In this document: one piece after another, positions 4,124 to 63,316 of the stretch
How the letters are laid out: the number at the start of each line of letters is the position of its first letter
Numbering within the stretch: the first letter of the stretch is position 1
Origin: Ascidiella aspersa
Taxonomy: Eukaryota
Direction of reading: 5' to 3'
Assembly (NCBI GenBank): GCA_963924565.1
Contig: OZ004614.1
Coordinates: 20,274,001 to 20,338,000 of the forward strand
Length of the DNA: 64,000 nucleotides
The notes under the pieces: model-generated
The model's input: the letters and a program-made list of their open reading frames with translations, nothing else
Told to the model about the DNA's origin: nothing
Databases searched by the model: none
Program-made: the position numbers and the translations under genes

Positions 4124-4287
4124 TAATAAGAATATCAAAGCCCATACAGAAGTATAGGTATCATTTTGAACGGTAAAGTTAATAATGAACAAAGAGTTAT
4201 TCGAAACGTTCAAAATGCTAACTACATTTGTATGGGCTTTGACATTCTTAATACGTCTTACTACAACCTTCAACCATTATGCTCCAA
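4124..4287 (+). mobile_element. Foldback/Penelope-like element copy
   Basis: Same sequence family with an intermediate-length inverted arm; flanks aataaaaac / aataaaaaaac resemble a TSD. Confidence 0.7.
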
Positions 4288-6150
4288 AATAAAAAAACAT
4301 GTTATGTTACAGTTGCAAGTAAGATAATTGACAACCGCAAGTAACTCTACAAAGCGGCGTAAATATAGCAAATTATTTTTAGTATAAGGCTATTTTCCAA
4401 GCATACTTTGGCATAAAACAATTTGCTAGCTTTATTTGTCATATTTTGTGGTTATTGCGTGGTACAATGTTCGAAATCAAATGAGTTAAATTGATTGTTC
4501 ATGTTTAAACATTACATTTTGATTCTAAGTGACTTGGTAATTTTCTAAGTGACTTGGTTATTTGGCCGAGGCCCGCCTGATTCGCAGTTGTACTAACCTT
4601 TTAATAACACAATTCTTATGGTTAAAATTTTTGTGCGGCCCACAGAGACGTTTCTGAGTTTAATTTTGGCGTGCGGCTAGAAAAAGGTTGCCGACCTCTG
4701 CTATAGCAGCTGTTGGAAAGATACGGCCCGCGGACCGGATCGGGCCTAAATCATTCGGTGGGCAATCTCTTTTACAAACTGAGCACAAGAGATGAGATAT
4801 TTTAACTACACGTAAATGCAAAACAAATGTTAAAAAATCTGATTGGTCTTTTAAGTACAATAGCATTGTAACTGAACGTTATCAGCCCAAACTAGCTCTA
4901 GTAAATTAAATGTTCATAATTTAAGCTAATCAAACGCATTTAAAAAAAAAACGTTGTCTGCCTTTTTATAATAATTAAGCTCAGTTTCAATGACATAAAA
5001 ATCATATGAACTGCTGTGATTCAGAAATTTAATTCTAAAACGCTTAAAAGTCGCACGTTTTTCTAACAAAATTTTTGGTGAAAATGTATTACGACTCGTC
5101 AAGACCTTGTAGCGTTTTGGTTTTACATACTATATAATAGCAATCATTTTGACTTTTTATGGGACTTTTCACTTGAATTTTTTATGGGGCTTTAATCAAA
5201 TTCATATTGATTTGTTTACAACACTAAAATTTTGTTCAACGAGTTTAAGCTTATAATAAATTCCACCTTCTGGGACAAACACTTGAAGCTATGTGCTGTT
5301 TGTTTTGAAATTGCCTTAATGCATTAGCGTGGCGCGTGTGCCCACGACCATTATCACCTTAAACACACCCAAAGTCCCGATTCCCGGAATTCTTAATCTC
5401 GCGTTTTCTCGAAAGAGCTCGCGTTCCTTAGACTTAATGCGATAAACAACTGTACATTAATCGCTTTTTCGGACAGCAGTTTTCATCGGGAACGCATCTT
5501 CCTCATATATGTTGACCGACATTGATTTTTTAGATTTATTTTGCTGGCCATTTCGCGTAGAACATGCTTCAAAGCAACTTCCAAAGTTATGTTGCTTGAA
5601 ACCCAATTTAACATACAAATTTAACAGTTTACTGTCACTTTATTTTTTTTGCAGTTATTTTGTCAAGTTACAGTTTACCGATTTAGGTTTTTAATATTAT
5701 AATATAGACTACCTGTAAATTTAGAATGTTCGTTAAGCCTTTTATTCCGATCACCGGTAGTTTAGGCATAAAAATATCCGTTGATCTGGCGTTATTTCTT
5801 CGAACAATTCAAAAAACGTTATTAACAAAATCAATAACGTTAACAGAATTTAAATATGCTAAGCCATATTACAAGTTACACCGAGGAAAAGTAACAGTTA
5901 AAAACGTTTCCGTTCTGACGCGTTCTTATGTAACTCTCGAGGTGAAAAACGCAAAGCTCGGTCCTTTGCCAAATACAGTGTGAGGTATTAAACATGTTCC
6001 GTGTTAGCGTTAAAAGGTAAGGTGAATAACTAATTATGAAACTGAAATGAGAACACATTTTCAATGTTTTGTCTTTAGGTTGACATTGTTCTTTTGCAAC
6101 AAACTATACTCCCTTTCGTGAGAAAGCCCAACGCAGTGTTGGCATCTCTT

Positions 6151-18200: not shown

Positions 18201-18485
18201 CACCGATTTTATTTTAAATTGTACTCTCTTTCCTTCTAATGTGTTCCAATTACCTTGTCGACCTGGCGCATTTTCGACAATTAAACTTCCAAGTTTATTG
18301 GTTTTCGTAACGCTTTGTCGCTGTCTGATTTATTTGGTAGTAATTGAGTTTATCAAAATTTTACCGGTATCGCGAGAATAATTTTGAAAGATTATATTAA
18401 ACATGATTCATGTAATTTAGATTACTACAGTTAACCGATTTGGACCATTTAACTGTTCTGCACGCCTGACACTTTTCTTCTAAGG

Positions 18486-18822
18486 CAGGGATTCTTAAAC
18501 TTTTTTTACCGTCGACCCGTAATTTGTTTTTGTTTGCGTGGACCACGGTGAACGAGTAATTTTCAAAAACATCACGTATTTAATTTGCAATACAAATAGA
18601 CTTTCAGAAATATGCTGATGATTTAGGTAAAATGGAGTCTAAATAAATTCAGAGCAAAAACGTTTTATTTTTCTAATTAAACTCTTTTCTTTAAAAATTT
18701 GTTTATGTCTTAAACATACACCAACCTAAACATACACTAGTCTCAATTTGGCCTTCAGGGACCCCGTAAAATTAGTTCACGGACCCTCAAGGGGTCCATG
18801 GACCCCGGTTTAAGAACCCCTG
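18486..18822. mobile_element. hAT-type MITE (family A)
   Basis: TIR cagggattcttaaac / gtttaagaacccctg; perfect TSD ttctaagg; subterminal palindrome ggggtccatggacccc. Confidence 0.9.
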
Positions 18823-20956
18823 TTCTAAGGTCTGCTTTACGCTGCATAAGTGTGCAATGTTGCTACTTTGACGCCGTGAAGTCTCGGATTTCAACGACCA
18901 CCACCCGTTACAAGTTTACAATCACCCACTGGCGTGTTATTTAAATGGAAAGGCAGCATTGCAATCACTAAACTAAATTGTTTTCCAAGAAACTTACACT
19001 CACGCACGCGAATTTGACATATTCTTTGCAGCTGTGATGACTTATTCGCTACACAGCTGTGGACATATTGATATGAACTCATTAACAAAACCTTGTTCGA
19101 CATCCAACTTGTGGAAATATTCCAGCTCCGTAAATAGAACGACCTAAATGTAAACGTTTAAGCGACGTGGTGACATAAGAGCAGTGGTTGTCAAACTTTT
19201 CCTTACTGTGATTCACTGGGAAAATAAACAAATCCACCCGCACTTTCTGCAAAACAAATTCTATTCTTCTACGCGGTAAAGACTAGGTATAAGTAAGGAT
19301 TGTAAGTTATATAATGGTTATAGGAAAAGCATCGCGCATGCTTAACTGCATCCCAATTCCAATACGAATATGCTGTTGTCAAAAATTAGAAAAATGTCCT
19401 GACAGTTTAAGGACCCCTATTTTAAAGTTTAATTTAGCTTCAAAACGGGTGCAAGACAAACTGGTCGCATCATATATTGCATGCTCAAAAATATTAATAT
19501 AATCAATAATTTAACATGAAAAACTCAAAGGCAAAGGCGTAAACCAAAGTGCAGCATCGCGTAATGAGTTTGGCTTAGAAAACGGGGCTAACAAGGCGAC
19601 CCTCTGTTTGTTGTATTATGTTTCCTGAATTCTTTTCTCTATCTTTACCAAACAAGGTTTTGTTTGTGCTTTGCGTCCATGAGCAACAAGATCACATTCA
19701 GCGTAAACAAAAGTGCGGCAAAATTCTTCAAAGAGGGGGGCAAATGAACTCGGGTCCAATGGGTCACATGCGCCTTTCCCCGTTGTGAGCTCACAATTGT
19801 TGTCTTGTGACGTCACAACAACACGTCTCTCGGATGGATTGCCTACCTATCCAGATAGCGGGACTGTTGTTTCGACGAAAAAATAGCGTATTGTAGCGCG
19901 ACTTCGATTGTTCGGTCGCGCGCTTCCGGCGACAATGAAGTTGCAGAACACGCGGGCATTGTTGGGTGTGCGGGGGGTTATGGCACGCGGCGCGAAACAC
20001 GTACAGCGCGCGAAATCGAAGCCCTGGCCCCGCCTCACGACACAGCCGGTCCCCGAGCGCCGTCCGTCCAAGCAACAGAACAGCTATAGCGTGAGGAGCA
20101 ATTAGTAACCGCGCACTTACGGAAAAGGTCGAAGAATGGATTTCTCCGGGGTAAAACAAGCCGTCCAGTCGCGCGTCATTTCGACTAGGGAAGACGAGGG
20201 TCCTACACCGTCCCAGGAGTATTCGGTGACCGGCCGCAATTGTTTCGCGGCCGTGTGGATTCTAGAGTTTCGCGGCCGCGACATTGTTTGCGCATACTCG
20301 CCCGAAAGGAAGGGCGCTGCTGCTGTTTTACCGCGCGCCTCTTTTGCCTTGCTCAGTCCGGGGATGATTAGAGGTTTATTGTGTTACACAGTGGTGACGG
20401 CGCGTGAAGCCAAAATAGCTTTCCTGTACACAATGCTGATCGGCGGACAAGCGCAATCGCCGTGTTGATTGCTTGTCGGGCTTGTTTTGTTTGTACAAGT
20501 AATCAAGTGCTGCCTCTGACAAACATTAGACGCCCGTTCCACAAAAGTAAGTGCGTCCATCGTGACAGAATCCGATCGCACAACTTAGCGGTCTACTGCA
20601 TTATACTGCTGTCCGAAAACGCTAAAGATCGATTTCTGATGAAAAACAGCGCGTTGATTGATCGACTGTTTTTTATTTGTTATTTAGAAGCGTTTTGTCT
20701 ATAAAATTGCCAAGTTTTTTTCAAACTTGTTGATCAAATTGTATACACTTTTTTAAATCTCAACCAATCTATTTTTTTCAATTCAACATTGTGTTTTTCG
20801 TTTGTAAAGGCTGTTACAAAACAGAAATCTTATTGGATTCTTTGTGTTTTTACTTTGGTTTTACTCTTGTATCTGCCTGTTATGTTGGATCTAACCCTGC
20901 TTTTGCTTTCAGCGGTCTTATAAAGGCACGACTTTGAACTTCTTTCCGACAAAAAC

Positions 20957-22854: not shown

Positions 22855-23151
22855 CTACGACTGCCAGGTGTCCTTTCCCATCTGCCTGTAGTTGTGGAAG
22901 ATGTCGTTGTGCGATTCGGCGCACTTCTGGTTGCACTGGCACGACTTGACCATCATCATTCGCTTCTTAAAGCGATAGCCGTTGTCGCAGGTGAAGGCGA
23001 CTGCCTTGGTGACAGTGCGCTTGGGCACACAGCAGCGTCCGTCCTTGCACGAGCCACAATACTTGGGCGAGTAGACGCGGCTGTGGCAGCCGGAGAAGGC
23101 GAACCTGACTCGGCGTTTGGGCTTCATGGTGCGAACACAGCGCTTGCCCTT
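22855..23151 (-). CDS. CCN2: CCN exon 6 (C-terminal cystine knot), stop TAG
   Basis: Acceptor ttcgcag; KGKRCVRT...[25 protein letters not shown]...FTCDNG...[13 protein letters not shown]...TWQS*. Confidence 0.97.
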   Translation of the reverse strand, partial: KGKRCVRTMKPKRRVRFAFSGCHSRVYSPKYCGSCKDGRCCVPKRTVTKAVAFTCDNGYRFKKRMMMVKSCQCNQKCAESHNDIFHNYRQMGKDTWQS

Positions 23152-26100
23152 CTGCGAAAAGAACAAGAGAAATCGTTTAGTAAGCTGTTAGGCGTGTTTA
23201 GGCGGTTAGCTTGAAAAGTCATGAAGTCACCGCAAGGTGTTTTTACGTTTTTTTAGATTACTAATATAAGCTTTGATGTCACACTTTTAACGAAGCTAAT
23301 AAAGCTTAAAATCAAACTATCCCTCTCTCAGCTTACCTTGATGTGAGAAGTAGGGTCGACGTTGCAGGGGCGCAACTGGCAGAGTCGCTTCTCCTTGCGC
23401 AGTTTGCAGCCCTTGTTGTCGTTGGTCACTCTCTCGGACACCCCCCAGCCACATGTGGTCGTGCAGGATGACCACTCGGTGGTCTGGACTGGACAGCCCT
23501 CGCGGAACTCGACTTGGATGGGTCGGTCGACTTTGGCTGCAAACGAGAAGAGAAATAGGGTTTAATTGATGTGTATAGAAACTTGTAGTTGAACAAAATG
23601 CAGAAAAAATGATTAAATTGATGTGTCGAAACTTGTGCTTGAAAAATGCATTCAACGCCGGATTTGGTTTGCGCAAGATTTCAACAGACTTGCGTAAACG
23701 CACGTGTTCTGAAGGAGAGTTTCGAAAACGTTCTAGCGCTTACACTCTCTAGCCTCCTAGTTAAGCCGCTGGCCAAATCCGTGCCGAAAAGTCGCCCGAA
23801 CGGTCGAAGCGAAGCGGCGCGCGTTTTTTTCCACCTGCGTCTGGCTGGCTTATCGCGCAGCGCCCGCAGGCCCATATAAGGCAATAAGCGGGCCGCATAC
23901 CGCACAAGGCAAGCGCAAGTATTTTTAGTCGCCGCCGCGCACGCGACCTGCCGACTTGGTCGAGAGTTATTTAGCGCTTTGCCTTTCGAGAAAGTCCACT
24001 TCGCAAGGCGGTCACGGCGCTCTTGCCCCAAGATACTGTTGTTGTTTTTATTTTTATAACAGGCCCGACATTTTTTCGCCACACTGCGACACGCTATCGT
24101 CTAATCCTCAAAATCCGTTATGTCATTTAAATTTACCTATCTATACAAGTTTTGCAAAACTTGTTTTCTTTTTGAGTGACATTTGGGTTCCAGTTGTGTT
24201 TCGTCGCGCTCGTTTTACTTCCGCGCTCCAAAGCACTCACCCAATGGGTGTGGCGGGGGTTCGGTGAGCCCTGGGGGTGACCCCGCCGTTTCCGGGGGGT
24301 CACGCGAAAGGATCCCGCACTGTAAAGTTTGGAGAAGCGCGACCGACCCTTGGAAATCGTTTTTGCACGCGGAGGAATCCATTGAAAACGCTAATAAACC
24401 GCCTCCAAAAATTGCGCATTTAAAACCCAAGAGAATTCAAAACTCAAACGAATTTAAAACTCAAGCTCTACGGTTTCTGACAGGATCTCGGAAACCCCCA
24501 AATACGTAAAAGCCCCCGAAAGAAACTAGGAACGCTCGGAATGCAGAGGGGCGACGATAGCGTGTGCGACACTTGCCTGCTGTCTCTACCGACCATCGAC
24601 AGCAGCAGCAAGCGAGCACACACGAGTTATGATAACCCCGGGCACCCGCAGCAGCAACCCTTGTTTGACGAAGGGCACTGACGGAGCGTCGCTTCGCACG
24701 ACAGCCCGACTTATTATCGGGGTGCTGCTGCTGGTGTTGTTTGGGGCCTTTACAAATCGACGAGCGGCGACGACGGAGCGGCGATGAACCGAGGATAAGA
24801 TTGTGGCCGCGGGCGAGGGTCGGCGAGGTTTGTTTACGCGTCCGCGCGACCCCTTTGTTTGCTTTGCCCTCCGTGCAGAAGCGAGCGGACTGCTGTTTAA
24901 CCGCGCGGTTTGCGAATTTTTAATAATATGTTTTTTGTTGTTTTTTTTTTGCGAAAGACGCCGCTGCGGAACAAGGCGTTTATACCAAGCACATTGAAGT
25001 CAATTTTTTTTTTTAGTTTTTTTTTATTTGAAGGATTCTTTTGTTTTTAAGACAAACAAATTATATGCTCACCGGGTAGAATGTTGGACTCGTGTCGGAT
25101 CGGTCTTCCGGTGGGGAACTTTCCCTGGGTGGCGCCGCCGTTCTTGCTGCGGCCCCCGGGGCATACCCACTCGGGGCAGCATTGTCCCGGCTTGGTCACC
25201 AGTCGTGGGTGCTTGCAGTGCTGCAAAGGAAACGACAACACGCGTTAAAAGTGCGCTCTATCGGTCAGTCGGTTTTAATGCTGCGTTTGAATGGACGCCG
25301 AAAAGGTAAGTTGGCGATTCATCGCGTCTGACCAGCGGAAAATGGTGTCATGTCGGCCATTTGGACCGTTCTGGCCGGTTATTTACAGTTGGCTCCTACG
25401 GGAAACGCTTGTCAGTTTGAGCACAAGCAGTTCATAATAGCATTTTCGTCTATTTTAGGCGCCCAAGCGTCCTTACAACGCCCTTCAATGCAATGTTGTA
25501 TAGGACGTCGAAACGTCGATTGATTATATTAAAACTGCTGGATGAGCAACACTCGGTTATACATTACGCATGGGCAGCAATAGCTTATTTCAGTGTTGTG
25601 TTACTTGAAATCGAAATTGTGTGCTTACCTTGGGTGGCAGTGCTGAGATGGAGATTGGGCATTTGGGCTGGCAGCCGATGTTTCCGTCGATACAGAGACA
25701 GGTGGCCTTACAGCCGAGGTCAAAGGTCTCGCCGTTGGCGTAGGTCTTGCTGTTTGAGAAGCAGGCGCGTCCCGGTTTCGCTGTAACGAAGATCGTGGAA
25801 TTCGTGAATTTCGTGTTCGGGCCGCGCGCGGACAAAAGCAGCGGGTGTCAAAAAGCTGTGTTTCCGCTCTCCGGCCACAATAGGGCCGTCGCGCGAACCG
25901 TTTTAAAGGCCCCAAGGATTGTCGACGGGCTTCTAGACTTTCACCCCGTCGTCTACGTCACAATAAGCGCCATTGTTTCAAGCCCCCGAGTCGCGAGATG
26001 GCATGCGCGCGCGCTCGGCACCGCTCTGTTGACTTAGATGCAACCCGAGAGCCAGAATCACTTGTGAGTCTTTTCACCGCGCTACGCTCGTAACGCGAGA

Positions 26101-28883
26101 TTTTAATTATTGGCGCGGAAAGAATTGGAACAAGGGCACGCGCCCAATGCGCAACAACTCAATACAAGGTATGAGCATATCTAGGCGTTCACCCCATACG
26201 CTGGCTACGTTCGCTCAAGGCCTAAAAGTTGTGCATTTCGGGTGATTTTTTGCGGTAAAGGAGTTTGTTTTTTCGGTGTAAACTTCACCTTATGGTAAAA
26301 ACAATGTATTACTGTAATTTATTTATTTGCTCAGTTAAAAGAAGAGTTAACTCTTATTTTGGTAGTGCGTTACTGTGCTATCAGTTCCGACTAAAAATAA
26401 AACTATACTAGTTAGGTTATTTGAGCATTTCTAGAAGGGGTTGCGACAATTGTTCGGTGATTTTGAAGGGAGTGTAGCAAGAAAAAAGGGTTAACAACCA
26501 TTGCTCTAAATTATTCGCTATATCAATATGAGAATTTTCGCTCACCAACGCATATTCCGCTCTTGACGTCCACGTCGCTGTAGCTGCAGTAGAGCTCCTT
26601 GTGGTAGTCGCACATGCGCGACTCGTCGCAGCTCTGTCCCAGTTGACGGGCGCAAGTCTTGCAGCAGCCGCACTCGTCCGTTACCATGGAAACGCCGGAC
26701 GGACAGGCGGTCACCTTGGGGCAGTTGGCGCACTTGCGTCGGCACTCGGGCGACGGTGTCGTGATGGCCTTGATTTTGCCGGCTTCCGAAAGCTGCAAGT
26801 TAAACAAAAACGGGTTTAATTTTTTTGGTAAACGCTTAAAGTGATTTCGGACCATTTTGAAGAATATCAAAGCTCATATAGAAGTATAAGTATCATTTTG
26901 AACGTTTCGAATTTCGGACTCTTTTGAAGTTGCCCCGAAGTAAAAAAAAACTGGACGAATGCTTGGAAACCGAAGCACTCGAGCTCTTGGTAATGGATTT
27001 CGTCCATTTGAGGCGAAAACGCGTCGGCGTTTGCCTTTGATACGCGCCCGCGCAGTTTTATCGCTTAGCGCGCACGGCGTGGGTCCGCCGAGATAAATCC
27101 CTTTGCGTGGGGCATTCCAACTCAGCGAGCTTAGCGCTCCGAGTTGGTCTCGCACTCCCCACTTACAACTTTATCTAAATTCACATGCCAGAGCGCGTGA
27201 TGCATTAGCTATACTGGCAGGTATCTAAAGAGAAATACAAAAAATACCTTTTCGGGTTGAAGAACTGTGCTGAGTAACAACTTGGCCACAATTCGTTAAG
27301 ATTTCGAAAGCTATAACTTTAATTCCTTTTTGAACCACAGTTTGCGGGCCATTGACAAGTTACGGTGTCGTTCGGTTGCCTGAGTCGCGATCGCTCGGGT
27401 TAGCGACTTGCGCGCCAAAGAAGCCGCTGCCCGGCATTTTTCGAGCGCGACTCGCGCAGTTTCCTGTCTAGAAGCCGTCGGTGTCTCGTTCCTCTGCGCG
27501 TTTAGGCGAGCGAGCACACGCGACGGCCGCTGTTGCGGGCAGAGAAGATTAGAGAGGCGTAATCTACCGCCTCGAGCCGCCGTCGCCGCCGCTGCGTTTT
27601 TGAACCGCGCGATTTCCAGCCATTCACGCGCTAACCTTGACGCGCTCATCCCCCTATATCCAACCTTGCCCAGCGCCCCAAGCCTGAGCAGCGAACTTTA
27701 AACCTCTCCTTTCGGGGTGCCTGGCGATGAATAGCAGGGGGCGGGGGCCCGGTATTTGATTTCTCTCTTTCGCTTTTACAATGGACGCGCGCGAGTGTAC
27801 CCACTTAGCCGCCTGTTTCGCCGATGTTTTGTCGGAGTTGGGTCTAAATTCCAGGGGCCCGCGCGTCTGTCCTGGGGCGTGTTTGACCGCACAACAGGCC
27901 AACCCGCCCCGCGCCATTCAGACCCACTTATTAAGTCGATTGTCTCGTGTGTTTTTGTGCCCTTTGTACGCGCTGTCGTGCGGCCACCGAGAATAGCAGC
28001 GTCAGGCGCTTTTTATTTCCAAGTAACACGCGCGGCGTCGAAAACAAAATTCCGGTTCTGCTTCCCAGATTGCGCCATCTTGTTAATTGCGACACGCGCG
28101 CGCACGAATATAGAGCGGAGGCGAGCAACGCTAGCTCCAGCGGGCGACCAACACGCATGGCCCGCGGGCAGGAATGTCGCCTAATTCGATAATTTCATGT
28201 GATTTGTGCTTTGCGCTGCGGACGATTTACATAGCGGACCAGGTGCGCTTATCTCGTAGGCTCGGCGCGCGGCCTTGGGCAACTAATGGCTACGTGTGGC
28301 GACAAAGCGCCCGGGCTTAGCCTTAGCGCGTTGCCAGGGCTCTGTGGCGCAACACTGTTGTTGATCGCGTTGTGTGCACTGCGAGCTGCTTGGGCAAACA
28401 AGCCATCGCGAATCCATAAATTCCGCGGCGGTCTTGCGCCAACAGCGCCGGGGTTTACGGATCGGTCTGGATCCCGGGCCGAGTTCCATAAATAGCAGGC
28501 GACGGGCGCGGCGCTGTTTGCCCAGTCAAGAATGATTCCGCTCTACAAACGAGCGCGCTCTGTTGATGTCTGGCCGACTCGACACCTGGCAGTGACTTGC
28601 TCCATAGTTTTTTTAACTTGTGTAACTGTTTTTCCTTATAACTATCTCTTAGTTGCTAGCTGCCGTGAACATCTGACTCTAAGCGTGTTGGTGCAACTTC
28701 ACACATAAAACATTTACGCAGCGTATAAGGATAACCGTGAAAATAATCAGCCAATAATTCCGATAACCACTGAGTGCTACAGCATGTTAAAAAAACTTGC
28801 AAAGTCTCAAACTCACTTACCGTTGCGGCAAAGGCAATTGCGCAGACAAGGGTGGTCGTGAAGTAGATGAAGGAAGTCGACAT
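22855..28883 (-). CDS. CCN2: CCN family matricellular protein (CTGF/CYR61/NOV-like), full gene model, 6 coding exons, 368 aa; orthology to a specific vertebrate paralogue not resolved
   Basis: join(28883-28821, 26792-26546, 25780-25629, 25220-25073, 23536-23337, 23151-22855) = 1107 nt. All introns GT-AG, phases 0,1,0,1,0 consistent. Signal peptide, IGFBP (12 Cys, GCCxxC), VWC (10 Cys), TSP1 (6 Cys, WSxCxxTCG), CT knot (10 Cys) = 38 Cys, the canonical CCN architecture. Confidence 0.96.
23337..23536 (-). CDS. CCN2: CCN exon 5 (TSP1 module)
   Basis: Not in the ORF track; translated by hand: (A)[66 protein letters not shown]. Acceptor ttgcag, donor gtaag. Confidence 0.96.
25073..25220 (-). CDS. 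CCN2: CCN exon 4 (VWC C-terminal part plus hinge)
   Basis: Acceptor ttgcag, donor gtgag; [20 protein letters not shown] followed by a G/P/basic hinge. Confidence 0.94.
25629..25780 (-). CDS. CCN2: CCN exon 3 (VWC module, N-terminal part)
   Basis: Acceptor ttacag, donor gtaag; (A)[50 protein letters not shown]. Confidence 0.96.
26546..26792 (-). CDS. CCN2: CCN exon 2 (IGFBP module)
   Basis: Acceptor ttgcag, donor gtgag; LSEAGK...[54 protein letters not shown]...SGICV. Confidence 0.96.
26861..26912 (-). mobile_element. Foldback/Penelope-like element fragment in CCN intron 1
   Basis: agaatatcaaagctcatatagaagtataagtatcattttgaacgtttcgaat matches the inverted arm of the family. Confidence 0.65.
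28821..28883 (-). CDS. CCN2: CCN exon 1 (signal peptide [21 protein letters not shown])
   Basis: ATG at 28883 in context AAGATG; hydrophobic 21-aa stretch; donor GTAAGT at 28820; phase 0 matches exon 2. Confidence 0.85.
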
Positions 28884-29476: not shown

Positions 29477-29912
29477 GAAAATTAAAAGTTCGTGTAAAAT
29501 ACTATTTAAAATGTAATGAGAATATCAAAGCACATACAGAAGTAACAGGTGTTGAAAATGAATAAAGAGTTATTCGAAACGTTCAAAATGCTGCCTACTT
29601 CTGTATGGGCTTTGATATTCTTATAACGTCTTACAACAACCTCCAACCATTATGCTCCAAAAACTGTTTAAAATGTTTTAGGGAAAACAAGTCTTGCCTT
29701 TTCTTTAAGACGTTTAATCGAAATTCGTTTAAGGCTAGACATGCTTCTATAAAAAGTAAATCTCAACGCAAAAGACTCTGGCTCAGGTTGAAAATTAAAA
29801 GTTCGTGTAAAATGCTATTTAAAATTGTTTAAGGAAAACAAGTCTTGCCTTTTCTTTATAGACGTTTAATCGAAACTCGTTTAAGGCTAGGTGTGCTTCT
29901 ATAATAAGTAAA
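29477..29912. repeat. Local tandem duplication (~120-150 bp); first unit interrupted by the foldback element
   Basis: gaaaattaaaagttcgtgtaaaat at 29477 and 29790; ggaaaacaagtcttgccttttcttt...aagtaaa at ~29682 and ~29833. Confidence 0.85.
29514..29662 (+). mobile_element. Foldback/Penelope-like element copy
   Basis: Same right arm and tail, shorter inverted 5' arm; TSD actatttaaaatg (29501-29513) / actgtttaaaatg (29663-29675). Confidence 0.75.
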
Positions 29913-35900: not shown

Positions 35901-37229
35901 TAGTTAGTGTTTTCGGGCTCAAGTCTTGGGGCTTAAAATTTTAGGCGTTGAGTTAAATCAACAGGTGACATATAACTCTGATTGACGGATGACATAACCC
36001 CAGTCTTTATTGTTTTTTCCGGTGAACATTTGGAAAAATAAGGATCGCAGCCGCTAATTGATCATTTACTCTATTTTGATTCGTTTTCGATCGCGCGCGC
36101 GCGCGTAAAACTAAAGCTCACAAAACAAATTATCCCATTTCGCGGTTTGTTTTTCCACGGGCCTGTCTTCGTTCGGCAGAACAACAAAAGGATTTCACGG
36201 CAAATTTTCTGGTAGTTTCTGTGGAATTCTCTTGTTCGTATTGGCCGGTTTGTTTTCATCGACATGTATGGTCTAGAATTCCAGGAACCGACGGACGGCG
36301 CGACTGCCGTGCCCATGGAACTACGGTTGTTTGTGTGCCCGCCCAGTCTTGGATATTGTCTGGCTCGGCTGCCGAGTGTAAATAAACGGCATTGTTTGTG
36401 TCTGAGCCGCGTATAGTCAGAAGCGCATTTCAAATAAAAGCCGAATAATCTTTCGAAAAACAATCGTTCTCTGTCAAATATGATGATGATAAAATAGCTC
36501 ATGGTTTCTTGGCAGGTGAAAAAAATATTATCTGCTGAAAGAAGTTCTCAAGAACTTATACTTTTCTTTCTTCGTCGTTGAAAACCGTTCTATAAGGTAT
36601 AGATGTCGAAATAAAATTGTATTTTCGTTTATTTTGAAAAACTCCTTGGATGTCTTGGGCATAATAATAATAATAATAATATTTGCACGATCTTTCGCCG
36701 ATTTATATTTGGCAACCGTGTATAATTAAAAAACACTCGCTAAATTAATTTTAATTAAGAAAAAGTGTATTTTTTTTTCGATTGTCTAAAAACTGATGAT
36801 GAAATCATTCCGCAATCCGCAATTCGAAAACCACATAGTAATGGCGACTGCGTTTTTTTTTCTTTTTTATACAATTGTGTAATGTGGGCTAGCTGACAAT
36901 AATATTGTATTTTTCAATATTTTTTTTACTATGTTAAATTGCGATTTTCGTCGTCCATTTTTAATCGCATGTTTTCTCGAAAGAGTCAAGTCAAGCTCGC
37001 GAATTTGTTTTTCAATTTGATTCCACGCTAAACAATCGGCCTTTGAGCGAAAGGTTACACCTCAAAGATGCTTGTCGGTCACGATAACGAGACACACGAC
37101 AAGGTCGCGAGGAAGACAACACGTGTTTGTGTACACAACACACCTCACATATCGAAACAACTAGTAAGTGGTGATCCTGTGGCCGGTGTTGGGTGCAGCC
37201 GATTTAAACACTGAACAACTCTCATTTCA

Positions 37230-37419
37230 TAATAAGAATATTAAAGCCCATACAGAAGTAGGTATCCTTTTGAACGTTTCGAATAACTCTTTGAGTGCCT
37301 TCTCTCTAAGTTGAAAATGAGTAAAGAGTTATTCGAAACGTTCAAAATGATATTTACTTCTGTATGGGCTTTGATATTCTTATTACGTCTTACTACTACC
37401 TCCAACTATTATGCTCCAA
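37230..37419 (+). mobile_element. Foldback element, best copy; probable Penelope-like retroelement terminal-repeat insertion with hammerhead-like motif
   Basis: 63-bp inverted arms (37230-37292 / 37323-37385, 4 mismatches), 34-nt unpaired 3' tail, flanking direct repeat aactctcatttc (37217-37228) / aactcttatttc (37420-37431). Confidence 0.75.
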
Positions 37420-37799
37420 AACTCTTATTTCGGGATGAAAGATTTGTTTCGTTCGTGTCACTACGTTGCTTAGCATTTACCTAAGAAGAATATACTTAGG
37501 ATATCACAAGGATGGAAGAAAAATGAGTAAATTCCTGTTGGTATAGTTTCATGTAGGCGTTGCCCTCAATGCCCATGTTTCTGTGGCAATAATAATATTA
37601 AAAAAAAACGGTTTGCCAATTAATAGAAGAATCAGGTGGCACTGTATAAAGACAAATTGAGTTATCGACAAGCTGTCGCACAACCGTGTTTCATCAGGTC
37701 AAAGTATATCAGATTTAGACAAATACGGCCATTTACACTGATTAATAGAGTGTTTGTCCAACTTTTTGCTGTTTGTGTAGCTTAAGTTATTGCATCCAA

Positions 37800-42413: not shown

Positions 42414-42503
42414 CTCTATGTTGAAAATGAATAAAGAGTTATTCGAAACGTTCAAAATGATACCTGCTTCTGTATGGGCTTTGATATTCTTATTACGACT
42501 TAT
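42414..42503 (+). mobile_element. Foldback/Penelope-like element, right arm only
   Basis: ttgaaaatgaataaagagttattcgaaacgttcaaaatgatacctgcttctgtatgggctttgatattcttattacg is near-identical to the other copies. Confidence 0.7.
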
Positions 42504-52491: not shown

Positions 52492-55400
52492 CTAGAGAAA
52501 GAGAATGGACCTGTTACCCGGCGTGAATCTATTTTTTTTTGTTTGTTTGTTTGGGGGGACATGACAATTTTTCAGAAATTACGTTACAAAGTTACGTCAT
52601 AAAGCTAGTCAAAACATGAAATCACAAAGTAAACGTGTCGTCATAAAAAATAACCGAAATACGGCATAGTTTGCTTATTTTGTATAAAATTTGGGTTCGA
52701 GGTGTTGCGTTAAGTACAAAATCTTTTATTACTCGGACAAAGCGCAAAAATGCCCCTACATCGTATAAGTTGCCCATAATTTTTATTTTCGAGGATGCGA
52801 TTGGACGCACGGCGCTTTGAGCTAAAAGGATTTTGCTAAAGTGGGCCATTTTATCAAAAGGCATATAAAACACTGAACACATCTTCAAGGTAGTTAAAAT
52901 GGAAAAAAACTACAGTTTGAGGGTCCATGGCCATGTCTGCCCCCTTGAATTCGCCCCCGCCTGTTACCAACCTTTTTTGCACTCAAGTGTAGCCAAATAG
53001 CCTTTAGATCAGGGGTTATTAAACTGGGGTCCATGGACCCCTTGGGGGTCCGTGAACTAGTTTTAGGGGGTCCATAAAACCCAATTGAAATATTAGTGTA
53101 TATTTAAGAAGTAATATATTTATCAAAAAAATAAAATAAAAACGGCTTTGTACTTATGCATACGGCTCCATTTCACTTTCACATTCACATTTTTCGACCG
53201 AAATCAGCAGATTTATACAGTTTTTTTTTTGTGACGTAAATTTATGACGTAAGTTTTAAAATTTTGCCTACCGGGGTCTACGCGAGACAAAAAAAATTTA
53301 GGGGTCCGCGGTAAAAAAAGTTTAAGAACCCCTGCTTTAGATCGAATAACACTGAAAGCAGACTCTTTCGCATTAATTTCTTGTCTGTAAATATACGTAG
53401 ATAAATACAAAGATTAATATCATTACCTTTGTTGCTAATTCGACAACTTCCTCACTCGATTTGTGTTCTTTGGCGAAGTCCAGTGCTGTTGCTCCAATCG
53501 CCGCCTATATGTGAAAAAAATGATGGTTTAATTGTTATAAATATCCAAATATACAACATAAAAGGGCGTGAAGAAAACGCTTGTATTTAAGAAATGGCTT
53601 TTTTTATTAGGTGTTGCCACTACACTGTGTTCGGTGGCACTTTGATTTCGGGTGTGCAGTGCCAAATTTTAACTTCTGGTGTTTAATCATGTTTTTGCAA
53701 ACCTTAGTTCGTAATTAGCCTGTCACAATTCAACTGTTTCCGATATCTTAAATGCCAAATGTACAAAATGCAAGTGTGCACACAAAGTGCTTAAAAAAAG
53801 TGTACAAAATGCAAGTGTGCACACAAAGTGCTTAAAAAAAGTGTACAAAATGCAAGTGTGCACACAAAGTGCTAAAAAAATTAAAGGTGTGCACCTTACA
53901 CAGAACTCAGACTGGCACCGGTTCCCAAACGTTTTGCTCTCGCGACCCCATTTTAATTTTACAGAAACTTACAAGACCTCCCGATGAGAATTTGGTATGT
54001 TAGACATAAATATAGTCAATAACAATCATATTTATGGTTAAAGCATTCCCACTCTTGACCGATTTTCCAAGATTTGCCATGAATGTAAGTAAATGCACGA
54101 CTTTTAGGCGTCATTCACGATTTTTAGTTTCCAATAGAGAAAAAATATCTTGTACTTATGTATATTAGATTCACGTAAAATAAATGAAACTCATTTCGCG
54201 GTGGTTATCCAGAACCACTGTTGTTTTTTTTTTTTTTTATAAAAGCAACATGCTTTTTTTGAAGTCTATGCTCAGCAAATACTTAAAAACAAGCGTAATG
54301 ATGACGCCATAAATACGATGTTGCTTTAGAGGCGCAAATACCATAAACACATTTTGATAGTTGTGCGTTTTTAGGCTCTATTGCTAAGTTTTATGCTTAT
54401 ATATTTTCCGCTTATGTTTCGTTAAGGCTTCAACTGACTATACAACGTAGCCAATATTACCTGCACTGTTGCTTTGGGAAGCCAGGCCACCGTCATAAAG
54501 ACCTTTTCCTTCATATTGAAGGAAGACGTCCAATACACGGACAGAAATGCGGCAAGGCTGCGAAACGCCAGTCCAATGAGAATTAGAGCTGCTCCCATGC
54601 CTAGAAGAAATGAATGTGCCATGATACATCTTTAAAACCGTATTTACAGAACTTGGTCGGACTAATTAGGACAGTGGTTCTCAAACTGGGGTCCGCGAGA
54701 CAATTTTGTGGGACCGCGAAGCACCTAACAAAAAATCTACAACCCGACGCTCCTGAAGAAGAAAACCTCTTGTGCCAAAAAAAAATCAGAAAACTTACTT
54801 TTCCAAAGCAAGCTGATTAGTTGTTCATTCACGTTATTGTACACTTCGAGTTGAATTGTCCATTGTGACATCATAGTATTACATTGTGCTAATGAGAGTT
54901 ACGTTTTTATCGCTTGCTGCGCTGTCTATGTGGGCTGTACGGTCACGGTTTTAAAACTGTTCGTGATTGCTTCACACAAAAAATTGATAGCCGAGCTCAT
55001 AGCATAGAAGCAAGTACACCCATCTGTAGTGATGATTGATACCATAAAAACAAATGTTATTTTGTGTATATTTTTAAGGGACCGTGAGTAATCTAAAAAG
55101 TTGCTGAGGGACCGTTGCACAATTTTTCTAAAAAAGTTTGAGAACCACTGAATTAGGACGACACAGTCAAGTCGCACGTTTTTTTCTTTAGCAGTTTTGC
55201 GGCTGCATTTCATGTATGTTTTATTATGGGTAACATACCCATTTCCTTTCAGTGTCTGAAATGTCATTCATTTATGATTGACGAGTTGCATGGTGAATTG
55301 TTTCGTGTTAAAATAAAGGTCAACGCCAAAGTGTTAAATTTACAATAAAGATGTTCGATACCTATTTCGGTCGGATTATGATGTCCGATATGGTGGACAA

Positions 55401-61400: not shown

Positions 61401-63316
61401 TAGCCTAAATCTACCTTTTACATTTTGGTATAAACTTTGAAAATAATCACTGTATATATACTCTTGGTAGTTAGTTAAAAAACTAATATTATTTAACTTC
61501 CGGCGACTGAACGTAGCATATAGGTTTCGAAAGTTTTAAATATTGACAAAAGTTGACCAGGCTAATGCTTGATCAAAATACATTTTTTGGCTCGAAATCA
61601 GCATATTTCTGAAGACTATTTATATTTTGACGTCAATTTATGACGTTATATTTGAAAATTTCTTGCCCACCGTGGTCCACACGAAGTCAAAAAAAAATTT
61701 AGGGGTCGGCGGTAAAAAAAGTTTAAGAACCCTTGTTTTAAAGCGACCCCACCGGCAATTTCTTGCACCTACCCAACAAAGGTGGAAGCGGGGGAATTCC
61801 CGGAATCGAAAGCTTGCCAGTGACGTAACCAGCTGCCATGCAGGAGAGCAGCAGTACAATGACCCCGAACAAATTACCCCCTGGAAGAGTCTCCGAGGGG
61901 GCAATACTCCAGGGAACACCCCAGACCAGAAACCCAAGTAGACCTAAACAGCAAAATAGATTTAAACGTTTCTAGTTTAGATCAGTGTTCTTCAACTTTT
62001 TTGGTTTGGTAAACAAGTTGTTGTGACGAACATATGCACCATGTTTACTTAAAACGTTAAACTGAGGTTAAAAACGATATCAAAAACCTTCGACGGCGTG
62101 TCACCGAAAGTTAGTTCACAGCGATTACAGCACCAATGTCTTATAGAAATCGGTAATTACTGGCAAATACGATGCAGCATTAATGGATTATTAAAAGTTT
62201 GTGATGCACCCTTGACCTTGTATACCTTTTCGTACTAGTGCACAGCATGCATATTTTGGTGCACCCTAGGATGCACCTTGAACACCGGTTGAAGAGCACA
62301 GGTTTAGATATCAAATTATATTTATAGCAGTATTTTGGGTACTTATAATTGACGTTAATGTGATCATTAAAAAAAAAAACATTGTTTAAAATCATAAAGT
62401 TATATAAATCGCAAAACTTTAAGGTTTGCAACGTGTCTCAGAAATAAAGAAGACCATATCGTGCACTTCACAATATTAATTAAATAAAAGATTACTTAGA
62501 TTTAGTAAAAGCTAATGTTCCAAAATTTGACAATTCTTTTCATACCGATACCCCAAAATCTAGACAAAGTGTATAGCAGTCCGTTCCGTTGATAAATGAC
62601 ATCAATATTATACTCAAATATATAAAATAAAAACTTGTACATAGTACTAACGCATGCACAAATTAGTTTTGTACGAATCGGCAATAGCAAATTATCGAAC
62701 GAGAAGTATCGGACCCTACATATTACCACCACTTAGTAACGGAACTCGATTTATATGTAAAATCATTCGACATCTCTATTTAGAGCGTGGTAAGGTAAGC
62801 AACTATGACTTTTTTCCTGTCATGTTTGCATCTTACCAACGCTTACAAACTTCGCCAATTTGCCTTGTGGGGGACACAATAGAGACTTTAGGCACTTTTG
62901 CACGCACGGGTCTTCTTCTGTGGTTACGCTGTAACTGCTTGCCATGCAGCAGCTGCAAAAACCCGACAGTCGTGCACATCTTGATTCTAAAAATGTACGT
63001 AACATCGGGAAATTCAAAAGTTTTGAACAGATTGACACAACCAAATGTCAGCATGTCCAAAAGAGCCAATTGAGTTAATTTTATAATGTTTTGTGCTACA
63101 TATAAGTCAAAAAATCAACCCTTTAAGATTAAGCCTACATTTAAAAATGTAATTTTTCATAAAACACTTCATTTTAAAGTTCATTATTATAATGTTGAAC
63201 TGAGATACAATTAATGCAGCAGTGTGTATACTATTACCTCTTGCCATCTTTCTTTTCAGTTTGACTGATTCGAATGATTTTTTGCTTTTTTCTGCATCTA
63301 AATCGTGTGATCTTTC
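52360..63316 (-). CDS. SLC9B2: SLC9B/NHA-type (NHEDC) cation/H+ antiporter, gene model with 11 confident exons plus 1 probable 5' exon; N-terminus may extend beyond the window
   Basis: join(63316-63238, 62986-62837, 61943-61773, 60992-60850, 60275-60148, 58906-58731, 57969-57863, 56996-56863, 56143-56019, 54600-54461, 53504-53427, 52491-52360) = 1563 nt, GT-AG with consistent phases. Motifs CPPxG, LPGGNLFG, PPLPPLLGML, WSSSLR, RAGIGLD, AVSPAVVVP, FQPLLFGLIGA, WLPKATVQAAIG and SIIITAP match NHA1/NHA2 as I know them. Confidence 0.95.
52518..52959. mobile_element. Degenerate hAT-like MITE in the last SLC9B intron
   Basis: 8-bp direct repeat cctgttac at 52510-52517 and 52960-52967; degenerate ends ccggcgtgaatc / gaattcgcccccg. 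Confidence 0.55.
53010..53334. mobile_element. hAT-type MITE (family A, opposite orientation) in SLC9B intron
   Basis: TIR caggggttattaaact / agtttaagaacccctg; perfect TSD ctttagat; shares the ggggtccatggacccc end with 18486-18822. Confidence 0.9.
53427..53504 (-). CDS. SLC9B2: SLC9B exon (AAIGATALDFAKEHKSSEEVVELATK)
   Basis: Hand translation; acceptor atatag, donor gtaatg; phase 0-0. Confidence 0.93.
53760..53880. repeat. Tandem repeat, 41-bp unit x3
   Basis: tgtacaaaatgcaagtgtgcacacaaagtgcttaaaaaaag repeated almost perfectly; each unit contains the palindrome gtgtgcacac. Confidence 0.92.
54461..54600 (-). CDS. SLC9B2: SLC9B exon (MGAALILIGLAFRSLAAFLSV...FNMKEKVFMTVAWLPKATVQ)
   Basis: Within ORF 54422..54622; acceptor ttctag, donor gtaata. 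Confidence 0.96.
54672..55150. mobile_element. hAT-type MITE in SLC9B intron
   Basis: Perfect 16-bp TIR cagtggttctcaaact / agtttgagaaccactg; perfect TSD aattagga. Confidence 0.92.
55732..55959. mobile_element. PIF/Harbinger (Tourist-like) MITE
   Basis: TIR aggttggtatacactatagacgcgt / acgcgtctgttgtgaaccaacct; TTA on both flanks. Confidence 0.75.
56019..56143 (-). CDS. SLC9B2: SLC9B exon (WGDEKKEVAKTFAGLWVIFQPLLFGLIGASVTVDSLKPSTV)
   Basis: Hand translation; acceptor ttaaag, donor gtaagc. Confidence 0.95.
56863..56996 (-). CDS. SLC9B2: SLC9B exon (KGRNGYRSALLLGLALFSAFASKLVHFAGASALASLVMPFVAAIR)
   Basis: Hand translation; acceptor ctgtag, donor gtaagt. Confidence 0.93.
57863..57969 (-). CDS. 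SLC9B2: SLC9B exon (NIVEKVLHGPLELILGIGVGVFLGIFLWYFPSKNM)
   Basis: Hand translation; acceptor atgcag, donor gtatga. Confidence 0.93.
58272..58577. mobile_element. hAT-type MITE in SLC9B intron
   Basis: TIR cagtgcttcccaacc / ggttgggaagccctg; repeated gcgaccca motifs; left flank gagtatac recurs 7 nt beyond the right end. Confidence 0.8.
58676..58708 (-). pseudogene. tRNA-like 3'-half fragment (T-arm and acceptor strand)
   Basis: GCCGAGGTCGTGACTTCGAACCTCACTGCGGGC resembles the variable loop, T-arm and acceptor of eukaryotic tRNAs, followed by TTTTT; no D-arm/A-box found. Confidence 0.4.
58731..58906 (-). CDS. SLC9B2: SLC9B exon (FVLCAVSPAVVVPSLL...GYGVEGGIPTFLIAGAALNDVIGITGFNVVLGMIFSE), ion-binding core
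   Basis: Hand translation; acceptor tttcag, donor gtaagt. Confidence 0.96.
60148..60275 (-). CDS. SLC9B2: SLC9B exon (ALFKLKWILIGFACSTTVVECCAVACFSNVMINFPWEWGFVIG)
   Basis: Hand translation; acceptor atacag, donor gtgagt; PWxWGF motif. Confidence 0.94.
60337..60672. repeat. Diverged tandem duplication, ~172-bp unit x2, in SLC9B intron
   Basis: gcatttggc, ttgcaagacaaagg, ttaatagttt and agtgttttaagtt each occur twice at ~172-nt spacing. Confidence 0.8.
60850..60992 (-). CDS. SLC9B2: SLC9B exon (MLVMGFLLRNVP...KWSSSLRLIALTVILIRAGIGLDGK)
   Basis: Hand translation; acceptor cgttag, donor gtaaat. Confidence 0.95.
61590..61735. mobile_element. hAT MITE family A, partial copy
   Basis: Aligns by eye to 53199-53334 (aatttaggggtc.gcggtaaaaaaagtttaagaaccc.tg); left end not identified. 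Confidence 0.7.
61773..61943 (-). CDS. SLC9B2: SLC9B exon (LLGFLVWGVPWSIAPSETLPGGNLFGVIVLL...PPLPPLLG)
   Basis: Hand translation; acceptor tttag, donor gtagg; phase 1-1. Confidence 0.94.
61983..62301. mobile_element. hAT-type MITE in SLC9B intron
   Basis: TIR cagtgttcttcaac / gttgaagagcacag; perfect TSD gtttagat. Confidence 0.85.
62837..62986 (-). CDS. SLC9B2: SLC9B exon (N-terminal region, ...LLCPPQGKLAKFVSV)
   Basis: Acceptor ttttag, donor gtaag; CPPxG motif characteristic of NHA N-termini. Confidence 0.88.
63238..63316 (-). CDS. SLC9B2: SLC9B probable upstream exon (ERSHDLDAEKSKKSFESVKLKRKMAR); may contain the start codon or be partly UTR
   Basis: Acceptor ttattag, donor gtaata, open frame ending in phase 1 as needed by the next exon; no homology support. 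Confidence 0.55.

Follow-up and report, generated by a model that had tools for sequence, protein, structure and literature searches.

The hammerhead-like motif at position 29551 of the 64,000-nucleotide stretch of Ascidiella aspersa DNA analyzed here (the window) is, on well-supported sequence grounds, the hammerhead of a Penelope/Poseidon-type retroelement, and the overall explanation that we favor, with good confidence, is that it is carried, likely as an inactive passenger, in a truncated head-to-head insertion of such an element. Minimal hammerheads of the Penelope-like element (PLE) type are found by the thousands in animal genomes, and the motif itself is ordinary. Its type, the U3-A8 variant of its core and a helix I of 2 bp have each been published already (PMC4209133).

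The motif is a minimal type I hammerhead on the forward strand (29551–29585), in which G2.1 (29551) and the core UUGAAAA (29552–29558) are followed by an extra U (29559), a 6-bp stem II (29560–29565 paired with 29570–29575) with a 4-nt loop, GAAA (29576–29579), the palindrome ACGU (29579–29582), U as the H17 letter (29583) and C1.1 (29584), with the predicted cut between 29583 and 29584. The letters and layout given by the sequence-only reading (a U3-A8 core, an extra nucleotide, a 6-bp stem II, a tetraloop, GAAA and a palindrome) were confirmed, and several features typical of this class are present: the U3-A8 variant of the CUGANGA core along with GAAA and NUH, the extra nucleotide after A9 with a G10.1-C11.1 pair and a long helix II, and the palindromic rudimentary helix III, for which copy-to-copy pairing is predicted at -3.1 to -4.9 kcal/mol. 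The A9-U-G10.1 triplet (29558..29560, forward strand) spells AUG in frame with the ORF of the parent element, and, judging from the reading frame, it is likely the start codon of the intact copies. Further copies of the motif in the window have their U3 at 42421 and 37311, and a fourth, damaged copy is found at 4178. As had been suggested as a check, a generic minimal-hammerhead descriptor was run: it matched the window three times, at the 29551, 37311, and 42421 copies, and matched none of 60 shuffled windows; as the three are copies of one repeat, they were counted as one event. A scan of the window against Rfam gave no hammerhead match at E<=5, the three matches obtained, two to miRNA-hairpin models and one to a short cis-element, all being far under the gathering score. 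The G-U pair earlier pointed out in stem II of the 37310 copy is indeed there, but the copy is decaying and the pair reflects a single substitution, which does not speak for selection.

The minimal hammerheads (min-HHRs) of metazoan PLEs (Cervera and De la Pena, 2014; PMC4209133), as described in the accessible text, are likewise of type I and located in pseudo-LTRs, have an extra nucleotide between 9 and 10.1, G10.1-C11.1, a palindrome at 15.2-16.2 and a long helix II, show the U3-A8 variant in Schistosoma mansoni, and occur as close motif pairs on opposite strands and mostly as single truncated copies. The difference lies in helix I, which usually has 4–5 bp, but has 2 bp both in the 29551 motif and in the intact element, and 3 bp in a sister family, termed family B here. 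The Drosophila virilis variant also has a 2-bp helix I, but with a small insert in helix III, and the combination of U3-A8 with a 2-bp helix I was not found in the accessible text of that paper (PMC4209133).

The parent of the motif is an autonomous element. At two loci (L061 and L062) two copies of the motif, in direct repeats 2666 nt apart and near-identical in sequence to the window copy, flank an intact ORF for an 840-aa protein with reverse transcriptase (RT) and GIY-YIG domains, the motif being located inside the pseudo-LTR and overlapping the ORF start. The RT domain is recognized by RVT_1 (E=1.8e-9), while the GIY-YIG match (E=7e-4, 20.2 bits) is under the Pfam cut-off of 22.6; the GIY-YIG motif is visible by eye, and relatives of the protein share the same domain set. 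By eye, the protein (P0001) also has DKG, CCHH and two cysteines between GIY and YIG, and lacks a CX2-5CxxC linker, a combination described for Penelope/Poseidon (PMC8557442), so that the protein motifs point to an EN+ PLE of the Penelope/Poseidon clade. Nine places in the genome match the N-terminal part of the protein at 99–100%, so that the family is young or active. Four near-intact elements are arranged in tandem with a period of 2671 nt at L251-L254 (G000:C9:23485569-23497139), with C11.1 changed to U in all of them. A 10-nt inverted repeat connects the end of the ORF (L061 2478-2487) with the 5' side of the hammerhead (L061 2634-2643), and it is predicted to pair in a read-through transcript, masking the core.

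Further support for the identity comes from family B (L260), whose protein is 43% identical to that of the window-motif family over 720 aa. Family B carries its motif in the same place, with the same extra U, the same palindrome and an AUG at the same position, but with a canonical CUGAUGA (C3-G8) core and with a 5-bp stem II and a 3-bp helix I whose letters differ and yet are paired. The compensating C3-G8 and the re-paired stems argue that the window motif is a hammerhead by descent. Along with the autonomous element, they bear out the proposal that the motif is a minimal hammerhead of type I, of the Penelope kind, and that its core is the U3-A8 variant. Within the window-motif family, U3-A8 is present in all of the first 100 listed among 832 genome matches, with no C3-G8 subfamily among these 100. 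The covariation suggested as a check is thus present between families, the comparison being one of two homologous families, but among the copies of the window-motif family the core varies as much as its flanks; the latter null result is uninformative, as inserted copies decay neutrally. Two family B loci with long open frames, L260 and L261, are located at G000:C3:20858046-20861597 and C7:11296080-11299631, a 26-letter family B word has 258 matches in the genome, and the outer ends of family B copies cluster at +88 and +121. Two more minimal hammerheads with a long stem II, known as motifs alone, are found on the minus strands of L263 (at ~686) and L273 (at ~71), with a helix I of ~2 and ~4 bp, respectively.

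The insertion that carries the 29551 motif is bounded by 13-bp target-site duplications (29501..29513 and 29663..29675) that differ by one mismatch. Between these, a short inverted arm (29514..29544, reverse strand; BLAST to L061 2681-2718, 89%), representing a tail-less end of the pseudo-LTR that stops before the hammerhead, is joined through 5 nt with no match to the intact element (29545..29549) to a long forward arm (29550..29662; BLAST to L061 2635-2746, 95.5%) that comprises the pseudo-LTR with the first ~37 codons of the ORF, starts 2 nt 5' of the core, and alone carries an AC-rich ‘tail’ of ~33 nt (29630..29662). The window segment 29457-29912 is a local duplication, of which one copy contains the insertion and the other represents the empty site, the flanks of the insertion continuing uninterrupted in the paralogue at ~29799-29850, about 300 nt downstream. 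A second head-to-head copy (37230..37420, forward) has a ~12-bp duplication with one mismatch; as its inverted arm spans most of the hammerhead, a single long hairpin is predicted for its RNA. The remaining copies are a single tail-less forward arm with an intact motif (42414..42502), an older head-to-head forward copy with a damaged core (4124..4288) and, on the reverse strand, an isolated inverted arm that lacks the core (26860..26912). The latter is located in the first intron of a CCN-family (CYR61/CTGF/NOV-like) gene on the minus strand (22855-28883), with IGFBP, VWC, TSP1_CCN, and cystine-knot exons and, at about 28817-28883, an exon that likely encodes a signal peptide. The likely start codon of this gene is ~620 nt from the 29551 insertion, which is upstream of it and whose motif is oriented away from the gene. 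The window also contains a separate family of dispersed repeats in both orientations (18479-18833, 52999-53345, and 61581-61746) and three copies of a 41-nt tandem repeat (53757-53879).

The same architecture is seen across the genome (309 Mb). A search with the 37220-37440 copy gave 2142 candidates, of which 40 were scored, and a 23-letter arm word has 2227 exact matches, one foldback counting up to twice, compared with none for a control word. In aligned copies, the inverted arm is short, the centre varies, the long arm has ~33 additional nt, and duplications flank the whole; their outer ends cluster near L061 2711 and 2746. Target duplications of 12–19 nt, with at most one mismatch, are present in 23 of 25 scored foldbacks (4 of 29 loci were unscored, and the lengths may take in a shared A-run). 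Most insertions of the family are two short arms without an ORF, and direct or inverted pseudo-LTRs, a 30–40-bp tail and a variable target duplication are all found, as is characteristic of PLEs. At one locus (L067), the two short arms are direct. An inverted pair with a 278-nt spacing recurs near several contig ends (e.g., G000:C2:448343/448621, C2:827614/827892, C3:314978/315256, C3:39258462/39258740, and C5:33168/33446), probably as a duplicated subtelomeric segment.

The sequence-only reading had placed the motif inside a ‘foldback element’, and a MITE or a DNA foldback transposon with a chance likeness to a hammerhead would indeed have long inverted arms, a length of ~190 bp, a high copy number and no coding capacity. 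However, the arms are asymmetric, the inner ends and the centres vary, and the duplications are of varying length, as opposed to the symmetric terminal inverted repeats, the shared centre and the fixed-length duplication of such transposons; moreover, the arms correspond to the 5' end of the ORF for RT and GIY-YIG, and the descriptor found nothing in the 60 shuffles, making this origin extremely improbable. The structure is instead an inverted pair of truncated pseudo-LTR copies. As such, it resembles the head-to-head pseudo-LTR insertions of EN+ PLEs (Adineta vaga Pen2a, PMC3846280; Craig et al., 2021, PMC8557442), with which, going by the accessible parts of these accounts, it shares the inverted truncated copy, the optional 30–40-bp tail, the target duplication, the TATATATA box in the pseudo-LTR, and a pseudo-LTR that holds the first codons. 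Unlike those cases, most insertions here are two short ORF-less arms, with more than 2,000 arm matches.

Such insertions likely arose as follows. By analogy with PAc, the Poseidon element of Anolis carolinensis (Frangieh et al., 2024; PMC11167929), the element protein would cleave an AT-rich target on both strands, and reverse transcription of the element RNA would start at two internal sites, ~80 and ~113 nt into the RNA. Two short cDNAs joined head to head would then account for the foldback, for the presence of a tail on one side alone and for the 13-bp duplication. In the available account, PAc likewise has an ORF for RT with a C-terminal GIY-YIG domain, which opens at stem II of its hammerhead and for which the in-frame AUG at A9-U-G10.1 is also reported, and two internal sites of RT start with a tail between them, in an AC-rich stretch ~110 nt from the beginning of the ORF. 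Its targets are AT-rich, its main substrate is uncut RNA and no RNA-seq ends fall at the cut site, while its core, unlike the one here, is C3-G8 (PMC11167929). Self-priming on an antisense template has been proposed for such palindromes (PMC3846280), but the variable centres and the independent inner ends appear to fit two cDNAs better.

As to the activity of the motif, one alternative is that of an efficient ribozyme, whose cleavage would make the RNA ends that are reverse-transcribed, the short copies being retrozyme-like products. The compensating changes between families as divergent as 43% protein identity are in its favor, and so is the H17 letter, which alternates between U (43) and C (15) among 58 arms, both being allowed. 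The inner ends of the copies do not agree with it. These were mapped for the first 100 listed among the 2227 matches, every one of which is from contig 1 and has its anchor downstream of the cut site, with 10 duplicates dropped: of the resulting 90 arms, 78 span the cut site and none ends there, which argues that the template RNA was mostly uncut at the hammerhead, and in family B one of 84 arms ends at the site. A truncation at the cut site first seen in 4 of 100 arms was dropped once the U/C difference at H17 had been allowed for. A targeted search for copies with a purine at H17 gave 94, of which 30 were examined; a script called 8 of these truncated, and by reading 2 break exactly at the cut site, no excess over the neighbouring positions (11/30 and 9/30 called by the script). 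A pile of loose RNA ends at the predicted site (43, then 49 reads) also seemed to speak for cleavage, but it runs on into a hammerhead with a 2-nt insertion, and thus represents an older subfamily and not a cut end. Tandem units with cut sites as their borders were not observed, and in the intact repeat the hammerhead fold is predicted to be 6.9–10.8 kcal/mol above the minimum, as a monomer prediction that ignores dimers and protein. Taken together, an efficient ribozyme is quite improbable. The arms that span the cut site identify the RNA that served as the template and do not imply that cleavage is absent; cut RNA may be left uncopied or uninserted. The non-LTR retrozymes are, as here, non-coding and PLE-related, with a type I hammerhead (bioRxiv 10.64898/2026.07.22.740005; PMC7229834), but, as portrayed in the accessible text, they consist of head-to-tail hammerhead units (bioRxiv 10.64898/2026.07.22.740005), whereas the copies here are truncations not starting at the cut site. 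In the window they are head-to-head or single, with no head-to-tail units containing a full hammerhead, and an assignment to the retrozymes was rejected.

The 29551 motif is likely an inactive passenger. In monomer predictions, the hammerhead fold is 7.0 kcal/mol above the minimum in this copy, stem II forming while the core pairs elsewhere, and 35.7 kcal/mol above it in the 37310 copy. The A+U-rich stem II of the intact repeat has a pairing probability of ~0.02, and in constrained folds neither upstream sequence nor splicing made helix I any longer; AG acceptors are absent within 10 nt of the core, and no splice joints are listed in the RNA run, which is of low depth. The original caveat of a stem I of about 2 bp and of unproven activity holds all the more strongly, given that the intact element also has 2 bp and that no sign of cleavage was seen.

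The intact tandem elements may be a different matter. The accessible text of PMC4209133 reports no activity for monomers and low activity for dimers. By analogy, the motif in intact tandem elements would cut weakly, as a dimer, and probably aided by protein. Dimer cleavage of small PLE hammerheads was reportedly also described by Lunse et al. in 2017. It is for the intact elements alone that another alternative departs from our explanation, namely, that the hammerhead is vestigial and dead throughout the family, kept solely through its overlap with the transcript and ORF start. Consistent with this are the 2-bp helix I of the intact copies, the weak pairing of their stem II, the U at C11.1 in the four tandem elements and the existence of a core-less derivative, a head-to-tail repeat of 92 nt from the pseudo-LTR end (L057 about 491-583, L216 about 1410-1502) without the first half of the core, whose related copies have a 2-nt insertion after H17. 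Against it, U3-A8 is a paired change at two positions, with the other core letters intact and stem II fully paired; the 2-bp helix I of D. virilis Penelope gave low activity with a lengthened helix III (PMC4209133, accessible text), and the Anolis motif is described as cutting only with protein (PMC11167929, accessible text). We therefore regard a dead hammerhead as unlikely, though to be taken seriously, and part of the constraint on the motif may be coding, as it overlaps coding sequence.

Where the inner ends do pile up is just 5' of the core. Of the 90 arms, 22 end at L061 2634 (22 of the 39 that reach it) and 8 at 2632 (8 of 16), 3 or 5 nt 5' of the core, compared with a background of 1.3% per nt downstream, and 23 of these 30 ends, vs. 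8 of 60 other ends, come directly after a G that the reference lacks (p=4e-9). TATA boxes are typically found ~30 nt upstream of transcription starts, and reverse transcriptases can copy a cap as G. Here, a TATA box is present at L061 2602, 30–32 nt upstream of the two ends. It is also at this site that left-hand loose ends are most frequent in one RNA run (178 reads; a run chosen by its species label, with about 6% of reads sampled) and in two contig sets (150 and 18 records), one of which may be from the assembly's own sample, with G as the majority adjacent letter in all three public runs. Two longer copies that extend into the ORF, L256 and L267, begin with G at this same site. The clustering of the ends, the extra G and the TATA spacing suggest a capped start, and the pile-up is likely run-off at such a start, many cDNAs running off the capped 5' end 3–5 nt before the core. 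A capped start in this position would explain why helix I is merely 2 bp. If the RT were to add an untemplated C, the same G would result with no cap involved. Molecule starts do not pile up in the RNA run, at an ORF depth of 0–5x, and 94–95% of its reads continue into unrelated sequence, i.e., derive from embedded copies. In family B, for which 98 arms were examined among the 258 matches (14 long, 84 short), the inner ends are spread, with 6/84 at the mode, a predicted initiator A, and 26/84 between -13 and -3, and the excess of G is non-significant (9/21 vs. 12/57, p=0.08). Neither a start 3–5 nt before the core nor G-marked truncation ends were found in the accessible account of PAc (PMC11167929), and no literature report of a cap-derived G in PLE insertions was found in a search of mainly open-access papers.

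The G-marked ends at 2634 and 2632 could also result from a template switch at the 10-nt inverted repeat, which is present and has, on its other strand, a G at the matching place, or from a G-bearing master copy, T being the commonest letter before the G (22/37). A switch, however, predicts CAG before the end, which is found in 1 of 22 copies, and does not apply at 2632, where the G is also seen; the flanks past the G differ among copies. These origins are accordingly rather unlikely, and run-off at a capped start is preferred. Going further, it is possible, and we propose it tentatively, that the promoter, through the position of the start, limits helix I to 2 bp and so disarms the 5' ribozyme of the mRNA, and that the thousands of tiny insertions preserve, like fossils, the course of the Penelope reaction in vivo, in which cDNAs started at the two internal sites would pass the uncut hammerhead and run off the capped 5' end with the cap copied as G.

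Overall, this family provides a simple genomic read-out on the role of the hammerhead in Penelope elements, a subject of recent accounts (PMC8557442, PMC11167929, as accessible), and the finding that most inserted cDNAs come from RNA uncut at the hammerhead agrees with the in vitro result reported for Anolis (PMC11167929). The intact, near-identical autonomous copies in the genome make the idea of the start site directly testable. If it is true, only read-through transcripts or downstream copies could cut, and the start site would serve as an off-switch of the ribozyme. Mapping the ends of truncated copies would then yield both the start sites and the use of cleavage for any PLE family, from genome sequence alone.
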